Shown here one piece after another: positions 789-26,759 of a stretch of DNA of 64,000 bases. Position numbers and translations under genes: made by a program. Source of the DNA: Eledone cirrhosa (lineage: Eukaryota); contig OZ024762.1 of assembly GCA_964016885.1 (NCBI GenBank), positions 18,476,001-18,540,000 on the forward strand, given 5' to 3'. The notes beneath the pieces were generated by a model, which was not told the origin of the DNA, did no database searches, and saw nothing but the letters and a program-made list of their open reading frames with translations. Each line of letters opens with the position of its first letter. The first letter of the stretch is position 1.

Positions 789-853
789 ATGCAGCCACCC
801 TTAACTCTCTGTAATCGGGTGTCCCTCACCTTGTTCACCTGTGTACTTCTCGG
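789..853 (+). CDS. AChBP-like secreted Cys-loop LBD protein, exon 1 (signal peptide MQPPLTLCNRVSLTLFTCVLLG)
   Basis: ATG at 789 is followed by a hydrophobic stretch, and the exon ends GG|GTAGGT (phase 2). This phase matches the single leftover G at the start of the exon at 22644, giving a continuous signal peptide ...VLLG-LTANLSDG. The link across a 21.8-kb intron is inferred. Confidence 0.65.
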
Positions 854-1739
854 GTAGGTAAACAATTTGAACTAACCATTCTGATTGAAACCAAACCCCC
901 TGAATCTGTCCCTTGCTTTTATGATATAAAACTGTTTGTTATGAATTTTAAAAAAAAACATTTTTATCTACAGTTCTTGTATCATAATTTTATGTAAGAA
1001 TATTTGTTTTTGTTAAGTTATGTTTTATTCATTAGCTTAAACAATGAGAAAATTAGTTTTATTATTAACTTTCTACAAATTCTTGATTATTAAAAATAAA
1101 TAATTGAAAAACATAGGCAGTGTCTTTTATTGGAAATATTATAAACCTTATAACGAAAGGTTTAAAGTGTTTAAATTTAAATTTTAGAAAAACAAAAAAA
1201 TCTTAAGTTATGTTCCAAACATGATCCTTAAAATTAGAAAAAAAATATATTAGTAAATTTCTATAAATTTTTGAAAATAACTGAAGATCATACGCAGTGT
1301 CTTTCATTTGAAATATAATAACGAAAGGGTTAAGGTGTTTATTTATATATAAATTTAAAAGTTCCATCATAACTATATGTAAAAAAATCTTCAAGTTATG
1401 TTCGAAACATCAGCTTAAAAAATTTCTTCAAATTCTTGATTATTTAAAAAAAATCTTTAAAAATTATAGGCAGTGTTTTTCATTAGAAAAATGATAACGA
1501 AAGGGTTAAAATGTTTATATTTAAATTTTAATTTTTCACAATAATTCTTTTTTTCTCCGTCTATGTAATTTATTTAATATACAAAATCTCACAATGTCAT
1601 GTAAAGCCATTGACATTATATTTGAGCAGTATTTAATAAAAAAAACAAAAACATACTACTAAAGGGAACAGAAAAAAATTAGGGATCAAGCGGCGAAAGA
1701 AGGGGAGAGAGGGAGGGAAGTCACTACATCCCAATTTGT

Positions 1740-2000
1740 TCGGTGCCTCAACCGCGCCCCGCGGACAAAATGGTAAAAGTGCTAGCGCAGAGAATGGCCC
1801 AGAGACACCCGCTTCAAAGGCCACCTCACTGGGCTCCCTCCTCAAGCGGGTCGCTGTCTTTCCGACTTTACGGAAGAAATCAGCAGTGAGGGAACCAAAG
1901 ACGCCAGAGGTCTCGACGGAGACCGGTGCAAAGAGGAAGCGGTCGGTCAAGCCCCGGTATTTGACTATCTTCCTCTCCTTCATATTGCGGGCAGGGGAGC
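1740..2000 (-). mobile_element. Fragment of an RLE-type (CRE-like) non-LTR retrotransposon endonuclease C-terminus
   Basis: ORF reads ERKIVKYRGLTDRFLFAPVSVETSGVFG, matching the KxxKY...FxPxxxETxGxxG motif of restriction-like-endonuclease elements. It is a GC-rich island in AT-rich DNA. Confidence 0.65.
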
Positions 2001-2136
2001 CCGGATTTGAATTGCAAAATTCCCCTAAATTCTTGATTAATTAAAAAATTATTTAAAAATTACATGCAATGTTTTTTTTTTTTCTATTAGAAATATGTTA
2101 AGGAAATGTCTAATGTATTTCCCCTTCACGTCTCAG

Positions 2137-2433
2137 CAGAGTTCGATTTAGACCTTGGGGGCCAGGGATATTTCAGGTTTTGGGGGCCCCTCATACACAC
2201 AAAATTAGAATACACCCCCCCCCCCCATTTTACATATCAAAGTTAGCTTGGTGCAAGTAATTGGAATTGAGAAGTTAATCATACAGGTATTTCAAAAAAG
2301 AATTAACCACCCTAAAACTAAAAAGCCCAACTGAGGGCACAACTAAATTGCTGCGGCTGTCGCTGGTGAGGCCCTTCCTCCACTGCAAGGGGCCCGGGGA
2401 AATCCCCCCCCCTTCCCCCTAAATACGGTCATG
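2137..2433. mobile_element. hAT-like MITE
   Basis: 8-bp direct repeat CGTCTCAG at 2129-2136 and 2434-2441, with degenerate CAG...ATTTA / TAAAT...ATG termini. A related reversed partial copy lies at about 26113-26355. Confidence 0.65.
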
Positions 2434-24362: not shown

Positions 24363-25353
24363 CGTCATTCGGTGCATCGAGCAGTAAGTACTTGCCAACG
24401 GTCATGATCAGCGGAAACTTTTTCGAGACCGTGCCAGGTGATGTTGGCTGCCATCAAGTCCTTCCGGAACGTTCGTCACCAGGTGATCCTTGGTAGTGGT
24501 ATTAAACTGGGTTAGTGAATACGTCTGTAGCCCAAAATTTTAACAAAGATTATTATGATACCAGACAGAGGTGGTGAAAGGTGATCTCAGATCATTGAAA
24601 CTCAGAGGAGATGATAAAGGAACATGGCTAGTGGAGAGTTATGAGGCTGACTATGAACGAATGATGCTAGAGCTTTGAAATCTTGCAGACATTAGTTTCA
24701 ACTCTTCTTATCAATAACTGCATTGTTTTTTTTCCAGGGACTATGTTGAAAAATAAACCTCATTTGGTCATTCCAGGAGAGTATCTTGGTCAGGCTATGA
24801 ACCTTTCAGCTGACCCTCATACTATGCTGAAAGAGATCCGTCCAATGAATGCAAGTGTGGAAAAACGGATATAAAAATGATGATGATGATGGAAAGAGTA
24901 AATTAGCAGGGTTATTAGAATGTCAGATAGAATGCCTTTTGGTATTCACTCCAGCTCTTTGCACTCTCTGACTTCAAACTCCATTAAGGTCAACTTTTCC
25001 TTCCATCCTTTCGAAATCAATAAAAAAACTACCAGTTCAGTACTGAGGTTGTTTCTTCCTCTATATCTCCATTTTCACTTCCTCTTTCATCTTCTCTGGA
25101 AGAAAACGACTGTGTTCATTTTCATTCCAGGAGAGAGGATGGACTTTGCTCAGTTTCAAATGTTCTTGACATGTCATATATCACTATGATACCCCCAACG
25201 ATTCCATCAGAAGTTACAGGCTCATAGATACAATATAATAGTATCATACTTGACATAACTTTCATATATGATAGAACATATTGTAATAAAATACATGGTA
25301 GTATATATGATATTGTAAAATTTATCCAAAAATGTTTTCTGTATCTTTTACAG

Positions 25354-25454
25354 AACTGGTCTGATCGTCGACTTGCTTGGTATCCTACAAAACAGCGCAG
25401 CTTTCGTCTCCACAATATGTTAGTGTGGGAGCCAAGTTTCTACTTTACGAATAG
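25354..25454 (+). CDS. AChBP-like / Cys-loop LBD protein, exon 3
   Basis: TTTTACAG acceptor and AG|GTAAGT donor. In frame with exon 2: NWSDRRLAWYPTKQRSFRLHNMLVWEPSFYFTN(S), which carries the WxDxxLxW and WxP...NS Cys-loop motifs. Confidence 0.9.
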
Positions 25455-26452
25455 GTAAGTTTGGAAACTTGTTATTTATTCTATTTTATTTATTTATAGG
25501 TGAATTGAAGAGAGTGTAGGCTCTGCCAGGATTAAAATGCCCAAGACATGCTGTATGACACAACAGCACCCCTATGACTCACGTTGGGAGTTATGATGAG
25601 TCCTAACATACAGTATTTCCCAGCGCCAAAGGCTCTTCCTCCCCGAGGACGCACCCTAACTTTGACAACCAAAAATTTGAAAAAAAAATAATAAACAACC
25701 TTCGGCCTCCAGGACGCATGGTAGATTTTTGAGACTTATTTTAGGAAAAAAGTAGCGTCTTCGATGGTGGGTAACACAATACATACACAACTGGTGAATA
25801 ATAGCATCACTGGTTAGACGTGAAGGTGTCAAACCCTGGTATTTGGATATGTAATATACAGAAATGAAGGTAGCATGCTAAGGGAACTGACCTACGCTGT
25901 GGTGACAAGAGAGCAAATGTTGTTCAAATTCGTCAACTATGGCTCTACAATGGCATTTGTGTGGGGGGTGGGGGGTCAAGCCACAGAGATACTCCAATTT
26001 AGGTGTATTCCACATCAAGAAGGGTACTGGTTGAGGGTAGCAAATTAATTAAGCCACATGCTGCTGTAAAGCAAGGTGGTGTTGATCCAGGGAAGACTCA
26101 ATCGATGTAGATCAGGGCCGGATTTAATGGGGGGGGGGGGGCAATTGTCCCAGGCTCCCTGCAGTGGGAGACCCCACCAGTGATGGCGGCCATAGCAATT
26201 AAATTGTGCCCTGAGGTGGGTTTTTTTAGTTTCAGGATGGTTAGATTTTTTAAATTTAAGACCTGTATGTATAACTGTTCAATTCCAAAAAATTGCATCA
26301 AGCTAACTTTGATATGTAATTGAGGTTGAGGAGAGGGGGGTTTGCTGTGTATTCTAATTGGACGTTAAACGACGACAACGATGATGATGATGATTTTTCT
26401 CTTTCTTCATTATTTCTCTCTCTCTTTTTTCCCTTTCTCTGTCATACATCAG

Positions 26453-26759
26453 TATATCAGCTATGCAGCCCACCACTGAACGAGTTATCAGACTTGAATA
26501 TAATGGAAACTTAAACAGATACCAGAAAATATCTCTGAAAACATTCTGTCCGATTAAAAGATACCATAACCGTTTCTCCTGCCCATTGATGCTGAAAGCC
26601 TACCCTTTCCCAAGCACACAAGAACGGCTGAGAGTGACAGAGTTTGAAGTGAGTGAAAACTTCATGAACCACTTGTGGAATGTTGAGGTGAATACAAATG
26701 CCACTCGAATCTACAACCATGATCCTCTTCTACTTGTTATTGATCTCAACATGAAATAA
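26453..26759 (+). CDS. AChBP-like / Cys-loop LBD protein, terminal exon 4 (Cys loop, stop, no TM domain)
   Basis: Long pyrimidine tract + CAG (ends 26452), phase 2 consistent with exon 3. Translates ISAMQPTTERVIRLEYNGNLNRYQKISLKTFCPIKRYHNRFSCPLMLKAYPFP...LWNVEVNTNATRIYNHDPLLLVIDLNMK*. Total CDS is 687 nt = 228 aa + stop. Confidence 0.88.

Follow-up and report, generated by a model that had tools for sequence, protein, structure and literature searches.

The stretch of DNA analysed here (the window: 64,000 nucleotides [nt] of Eledone cirrhosa contig OZ024762.1, positions 18,476,001 to 18,540,000 of the forward strand) carries a gene whose four exons join into an intact frame of 228 codons plus TAA. 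The introns have GT donors and CAG acceptors and interrupt the frame in phases 2, 0, 2. The predicted product is a signal peptide followed by a lone Cys-loop receptor ectodomain. Sequence comparison places the gene in a pan-molluscan family of channel-less ectodomains, distinct from the groups first considered, within which it likely arose by tandem duplication and lacks the usual tail. This placement was overlooked in an initial interpretation made from the letters of the window (the sequence-only reading). The features of the gene, all on the plus strand, are as follows.

625..788, +, probable 5' untranslated part of exon 1 (inferred start, possibly further upstream)
789..853, +, coding part of exon 1, predicted signal peptide (21 codons plus 2 nt, phase-2 donor)
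22644..22857, +, exon 2, 214 nt, N-terminal helix and beta1-beta2 (PF02931 positions 3-52)
25354..25454, +, exon 3, 101 nt, phase 0 to 2 (PF02931 positions 56-91)
26453..26759, +, coding part of exon 4: loops E, Cys-loop, B, F, short loop C and beta10; stop codon TAA at 26757-26759
26547..26582, +, shortened Cys-loop C159-x10-C170, with 10 residues between the cysteines and without an FPFD-type motif
26761..26948, +, short interspersed repeat at the stop, with very high repeat depth in all 4 sequencing runs compared
26964..26969, +, first AATAAA 3' of the stop, candidate polyadenylation signal by sequence match

Gene structure, fold and orthologues

An in-frame stop lies upstream of the ATG at 789. 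The 5' end is placed at about 625 because an 872-nt contig, described below, exceeds the 708 nt of spliced sequence by 164 nt; this position falls in a microsatellite, at which contigs are expected to end. Intron 1 spans 21.8 kb, and four alternative joins of exons 1 and 2 each ran into a stop after 22 to 51 residues. Exon 3 is the homologue of a 110-nt exon of channel genes, with 9 nt less. All 3/3 channel genes measured in the same genome have a 110-nt, phase 0-to-2 exon at this place, and intron-bearing nicotinic acetylcholine receptor (nAChR) genes share the two flanking introns and their phases, as well as the fold (Z of about 20). In contrast to those genes, the window frame stops where the pre-M1 segment would begin and has no M1-M4.

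A search with exon 4 returned the Octopus vulgaris orthologue P0001 (CAI9740372), likewise of 228 residues. It is identical to the window protein at 173/228 positions, with no insertions or deletions and with the signal-peptide exon included (18/22 identical residues in exon 1; 61/71 in exon 2). Cluster members from O. bimaculoides and O. sinensis stop at the same residue as the window protein, and the Argonauta hians orthologue P0005 (224 residues) ends one residue later. The open frame and the stop are kept in five species. Database models of this gene and of its paralogue (P0002, P0003, P0004, P0006 and P0008) are often faulty: the N-terminus is false, absent or taken from a repeat, or the model stops early. 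The distance to exon 1, more than 20 kb upstream, is the probable reason. Both genes carry misleading 'acetylcholine receptor subunit' names in the databases.

Exons 2, 3 and 4 each match the ligand-binding domain (LBD) profile PF02931 alone and in order (profile positions 3-52, 56-91 and 101-161; E = 0.0011, 0.00098 and 0.06), each below the gathering score by itself, and P0001 scores 69.2 bits against a cut-off of 26. The M1-M4 domain, PF02932, was not found in the orthologues by Pfam profile search. In the AlphaFold model of P0001 (predicted local distance difference test [pLDDT] 87), a hydrophobic helix at 7-25 corresponds to the predicted signal-peptide region, and the remaining build is an N-terminal helix and a ten-stranded beta sandwich. 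Residues 33-228 align with whole ectodomains of solved structures at Z 20-21, with a root-mean-square deviation of 2.0-2.4 over about 190 residues, and the Cys-loop disulfide pair (C159 and C170) is present. The chemotactile receptor (CR) CRT1, alpha7-AChBP, nAChRs, GABA-A and GluCl tie at Z 20-21, so the fold points to no nearest family. The four exons, GT-AG sites, phases and 228-residue frame of the sequence-only reading were thus confirmed by re-joining and by P0001. Its signal peptide plus complete LBD without M1-M4 is likewise supported, with PF02931 above the cut-off in the orthologue and under it in the single exons of the window.

Transcript evidence and absence of a channel region

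In public run X22, which behaves like RNA, one 872-nt contig covers 26451-26780 with 0 differences and continues through the stop to the repeat. Depth in X22 is 252.8 over exon 4, with the identical value at position 25416 in exon 3, and 0.33 in the intron 3 bin. The bin depths fit a contig that begins at exon borders (240.7 both expected and seen; 117.7 expected versus 123.8 seen). In the large run X21, coverage is unbroken across the exon borders at a depth of about 8. Splice junctions proposed as a check in the sequence-only reading were borne out in part: judged by their equal depth, exons 3 and 4 share an exon-only X22 contig, whose joint between them is not among the 15 joints listed. 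Exons 1 and 2 lie outside the stretch compared; from the length arithmetic against a four-exon mRNA, they would belong to the same contig. Runs X1 and X2 have depth 0 in the exon 4 bins 26444-26735, which is uninformative about expression. Position 25416 is also the site of a synonymous T>C, carried by the X22 contig and by roughly half of the X21 depth.

The sequence-only reading had allowed for splicing out of exon 4 into downstream transmembrane (TM) exons. No such splicing was seen: the contig passes the stop, and 60 TM-region queries together with an 18-seed TM profile found no orphan TM exons in 404 kb, the single TM region there being that of an intronless gene 145 kb downstream. In the C19 and C4 channel genes of the same genome, the homologous exon continues into M1 without an intron, and therefore no donor is expected in exon 4. 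Two weak GT sites lie inside this exon (scores 4.1 and 3.7). On either side of the repeat at the stop lies one copy of an 18-bp target-site duplication (26743-26760 and 26949-26966), and because both copies contain the stop, the stop predates the repeat; repeat insertion is ruled out as a cause of truncation. Past the second copy, at about 26969-27030, the old frame has two stops and then a hydrophobic run. A vestigial tail was weighed as its origin and discarded, since the run is probably a T-rich microsatellite edging repeated DNA. On these lines of evidence, the absence of the channel region is real.

A tandem paralogue and a molluscan family of tailed ectodomains

A paralogue in the same orientation is found some 15-43 kb upstream of the window (G000:C23:18432918-18461407, +; loci L007 and L010). 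Its four exons encode 274 residues, with phases 2, 0, 2, a 101-nt exon 3 and a 23.7-kb intron 1, and the protein is 41% identical to that of the window. At its C-terminus, a few polar residues lead into a hydrophobic run that stops four residues before the last one. In the model of the tailed Argonauta paralogue, beta10 is followed by a linker of about 7 residues and one predicted terminal helix. The Argonauta pair has adjacent accessions (GAB1609957/58), and the O. vulgaris accessions are two apart (CAI9740372/74). Five protein queries of the Eledone genome showed no further family paralogues, a count to be taken as a lower bound.

Homologue searches by word index had little sensitivity (1, 2 and 5 matches). 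The family was drawn from a full HMMER scan, using the best 150 of 207 matches at E<=0.001; the top matches listed are proteins of 260-310 residues with the same build. Atlas searches yielded generic PF02931 clusters only. All of the named family rows (12/12) are molluscan, from Octopus, Argonauta, Arion, Patella, Babylonia, Dreissena, Potamilus, Ostrea, Ylistrum and Pinctada. On this comparison, the window gene and its paralogue are members of a family of channel-less ectodomains found in gastropods, bivalves and octopods.

Most of the family has a tail. A hydrophobic 13-mer lies no more than 16 residues from the C-terminus in 25/31 rows; the rows without it are the four tail-less octopod rows, P0048, and P0010, whose C-terminus is long and unrelated. 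The tails begin 81-128 residues past the second Cys, versus a median of 67 for M1 in 75 channels (at least 81 in 3/75), and a proline is near the tail in 6/25 family rows versus near M1 in 75/75 channels. An N-terminal hydrophobic stretch is present in 22/31 rows. At least one small-residue triplet precedes every tail, by a heuristic of our own that carries no background rate. Glycosylphosphatidylinositol (GPI) signals are laid out in this way: an N-terminal signal peptide is combined with a hydrophobic run that follows a polar spacer with small residues and closes the protein, so that nothing reaches the cytosol. By our own hydropathy rule, the family tails are likely GPI-signal-like, and tethering to the cell surface is predicted.

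The family also differs from channels within the ectodomain. A 10-residue Cys-loop is found in 23/31 family rows, versus a 13-residue loop in 72/75 channels, and the [FY]PxD motif occurs in 0/31 family rows versus 69/76 channels. The acetylcholine-binding YxCC is likewise found in 0/31 family rows.

Phylogenetic placement

Trees were built from 164 sequences of no more than 530 residues, reduced to 136 by removal of 11 whose domain was too short and of 17 near-duplicates. Among the latter were three tailed rows, two orthologues without a tail, and the isoform P0022, whose C-terminus is unrelated. FastTree (136 rows) gathers the 31 family rows in one clade with support of 98. IQ-TREE, run on 51 chosen rows, gives a tail-less octopod clade (100/100) that is sister to the tailed octopod paralogues (100/98), and CRs form a separate clade (99/95) with the window gene outside it. 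There are two changes of tail state on the tree. Since the sister group and the outgroup are both tailed, tail loss in the window gene's lineage is the simplest account. Two further rows touch on tail history. P0048 (220 residues, from a 1315-nt contig) is tail-less and sits on a long branch inside a group of tailed gastropod-type rows, so that it may have lost its tail independently. P0119 (Lingula anatina, XP_013383175), a channel-less ectodomain with a hydrophobic C-terminal tail, falls in another clade with P0153 and P0026 (99/95); given this position, a GPI-like tail may have arisen twice.

Forced groupings for approximately unbiased (AU) tests were taken from the idea, in the sequence-only reading, of kinship to AChBPs and CRs, and the tests were run once the tree was known. 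Grouping the window gene's clade with CRs was rejected (p = 0.0023). So was grouping it with P0095 (p = 0.0026), the sole AChBP-type anchor, which was identified by its PDB matches to AChBPs and stands in a tree without canonical Lymnaea, Aplysia or ACCBP sequences. Forcing the whole family together with P0095 was not rejected (p = 0.49). This result, with the 10-residue Cys-loop that P0095 also has, makes a deep common origin of the family and AChBP possible. Close kinship to either group is not supported; the AChBP-like architecture, a signal peptide plus a lone ectodomain without a TM region, is.

Binding pocket and predicted assembly

The aromatic box is lost: the loop A Tyr is replaced by Thr125, the loop D Trp by Thr90 and the loop B Trp by Tyr177. 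Loop C is short, with a single Tyr214 and no vicinal cysteines. Glu92, Arg140 and Lys175 are kept in 4/4 tail-less orthologues, in which position 177 is Tyr or His, and are not kept in the tailed paralogues, which suggests that the tail-less protein has a specificity of its own. The pocket would be open, given the short loop C, and polar. In GABA and glycine receptors, an amine-binding Glu occupies the place of the Lys here. Speculatively, this Lys would disfavour cationic amines, so that the ligand may be neutral or anionic. It is likely not acetylcholine, with binding predicted at subunit interfaces. In the wider family, the loop D Trp column (window residue 90) holds Asp in 19/24 non-octopod rows and Thr/Leu or Ser in the octopod genes.

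The sequence-only reading had proposed modelling a pentamer. A homo-oligomer model of four copies of the orthologue scored 0.75, versus 0.48 for the best of three controls, with contact agreement between runs of at least 89%, pLDDT of at least 77, and plus and minus faces predicted to meet head-to-tail as in a ring. The mark that defines a complex in this test was reached by 21/30 solved pairs and 0/23 single chains from microbes, and by 17/29 and 0/30, respectively, from eukaryotes. A ring, probably a pentamer, is predicted.

Interpretation and alternatives

These results suggest that the window gene encodes a secreted, ring-forming protein that would take up or carry, in soluble form, a ligand other than acetylcholine and probably not cationic, a reading to which we assign a probability of roughly 0.55 on the basis of sequence comparisons and models. 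An ancestral, intron-bearing gene of nAChR type would have lost M1-M4 early in molluscs, and the channel-less ancestor would then have gained the C-terminal GPI-signal-like tail. Tandem duplication would have followed in octopods, before the Argonauta/Octopus split. Loss of the tail from the window copy would have left a soluble version beside the surface-tethered one. Once secreted, it would form a pentamer whose five interface pockets are open and polar. For a broader proposition, we consider the odds about even: an undescribed, phylum-wide class of GPI-anchored channel-less rings would exist in molluscs as a third architecture next to channels and soluble AChBPs, binding non-cholinergic ligands at the cell surface, and octopods would have both a tethered copy and a secreted one, the window gene, which would have become AChBP-like independently.

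Several points weigh against these proposals. Run X22 counts as RNA by its behaviour, its library type being absent from the record. The GPI signal was judged by our hydropathy rule; a single-pass C-terminal anchor fits the family tails equally well. The linker of only about 7 residues after beta10 in the octopod paralogue leaves room for a degenerate M1. The support for the family as one clade in IQ-TREE is 95/77, unstarred. The oligomer model used four copies, unlike its calibration, and was of the orthologue rather than the window protein; its pass is possibly memory of solved pentamers, as 1/7 eukaryotic pairs without an older solved relative passed. Moreover, the predicted interface is no better conserved than the rest of the protein (43/64 versus 104/134 positions elsewhere, compared with P0001).

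The tail-less subunit might instead mainly partner its tailed paralogue, forming mixed surface rings with one or a few anchors and a new interface specificity. We regard this as rather unlikely. The pair is kept in tandem here and, by accession adjacency, also in Argonauta and O. vulgaris, and Cys-loop subunits often co-assemble at about the 41% identity that separates the two paralogues. However, tandem position follows from duplication alone, and the homo-oligomer model of the orthologue passes the complex test.

Somewhat less probable again is a scaffold or matrix protein that uses its ring surface and glycans rather than a small-molecule pocket, as does ACCBP. The pocket residues vary widely over the family, and the window protein has three sequons (N26, N94 and N209), two of them common to the orthologue. 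According to the available text of PMC3423370, ACCBP of Pinctada and Haliotis, compared here by description only, is likewise a secreted channel-less ectodomain with a non-synaptic use, and ACCBP and BgAChBP1 bind amorphous CaCO3. Yet ACCBP acts in shell growth and octopods are shell-less, and the main text of a preprint on the argonaut eggcase (bioRxiv 2021.07.10.451900) contains none of the words acetylcholine, ligand-gated and neurotransmitter. Pocket positions 92, 140 and 175 are invariant in the four tail-less orthologues, and the predicted isoelectric points differ (8.9 versus 5.8).

An octopus AChBP that buffers acetylcholine or scavenges nicotinic toxins is very improbable, although size and architecture are equal. 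The AChBPs of Lymnaea, Aplysia, Bulinus and Biomphalaria share with the window protein the signal peptide, the lone ectodomain of about 200 residues without a TM region, the shortened Cys-loop without FPFD and the ring, predicted here. AChBP is among the top Foldseek rows; a P0095 search of the genome gave no close AChBP match (best E 8e-8, to channels, in a weak exon-wise search); and the whole-family grouping with P0095 survived its test. In contrast, the AChBP vicinal cysteines, loop A Tyr, loop B Trp and loop D Trp are all lost in the window gene. Its loop C is about 8-10 residues shorter, its identity to AChBP is about 18% (18% to P0095), and its nearest relatives carry a hydrophobic C-terminal tail. 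No AChBP appears in the best 60 PDB sequence matches of P0001, and the conserved AChBP pocket residues given in section 6 of PMC3423370 (Y92, W146, Y186, C188, C189 and Y193) are mostly lost here. The AU test of the window gene's clade adds to these points.

Even less credence attaches to a soluble derivative of cephalopod CRs. Like the window protein, these receptors (CRT1, 8EIS/9E6B; CRB1, 8EIZ) are encoded in octopod genomes and have an nAChR-like ectodomain that is divergent and lacks the acetylcholine box; vicinal cysteines are lacking in both, and an intronless CR lies 145 kb downstream. CRT1 is the first structural row at Z 20.8, but all 50 rows fall within 1 Z. The CRs, however, are intronless four-TM channels with 13-residue Cys-loops, a clade of their own and 19-21% identity to the window protein, whereas the window gene has four exons with nAChR-type introns retained, no TM region, and bivalve and gastropod relatives. 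With the AU result, CR ancestry is rejected; a chemosensory carrier role is possible by analogy.

The least credible account, already largely refuted, is that the gene is a pseudogene or an incomplete model of a channel subunit gene: LBD-only models are common and often fragments (18/78 in O. bimaculoides; PMC6896357, Table 1), and a repeat lies at the stop and two weak GT sites in exon 4, but the frame and stop are conserved as described, the contig passes the stop, the stop is older than the repeat, TM exons are lacking nearby, and the TM-contacting Cys-loop motif is lacking family-wide.

Neighbouring features

Window positions 22902-24362 consist of seven 209-bp units, 99% alike, beginning 45 bases past the exon 2 donor. 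A 775-codon open frame at 30849-33176, a near-perfect tandem repeat of about 32 codons, is likely non-coding. The intronless CR-type gene 145 kb downstream (L058:8302-9447; G000:C23:18648302-18649447, +) stands alone, off the main cluster, and its best PDB match is CRT1 (E 4.6e-40). At G000:C11:23.62-23.92 Mb (L027-L054, in part) there are more than 20 intronless CR-type frames of about 400 residues, two of them apparently broken.

Relation to earlier work and significance

Jiao et al. 2019 tallied 18 LBD and 7 LBD-TM models in O. bimaculoides, and only the 644 LBD-NTM genes entered their family analysis (PMC6896357). The main text of that paper does not contain 'AChBP' or 'signal peptide', and its available passages do not treat the LBD and LBD-TM classes as a family; its tallies may include genes of the window type. 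The available text of PMC13174522 describes 15 molluscan nAChR clades and does not mention AChBP or soluble forms. Searches of the open PMC and bioRxiv literature, which included PMC10338036 and bioRxiv 2025.06.15.659772, turned up no description of an octopus AChBP-like protein or of a GPI-tailed Cys-loop ectodomain family, although supplements may list them. A text search of the O. vulgaris ink proteome supplement with four terms gave 0 matches. The term 'acetylcholine' gave 4 matches in a salivary gland proteome, among them an esterase and a 441-long match to alpha-10.

AChBP already offers a precedent for the architecture; by the features tested, the window gene is neither an AChBP nor a CR. 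It likely encodes a secreted protein from a molluscan family of channel-less, mostly tailed ectodomains that appears not to have been described before. Two uses of Cys-loop ectodomains are known, as the heads of channels and as soluble AChBPs. A conserved surface-tethered channel-less class would, if true, be a new use of the fold, as a ligand sink, a co-receptor or an adhesion ring, and the family would account for part of the 'LBD only' and 'LBD-TM' models left aside in surveys. As a small soluble protein, the window product should suit expression, structure solving and ligand screening, and the octopod pair would offer a direct comparison of a tethered and a secreted form.

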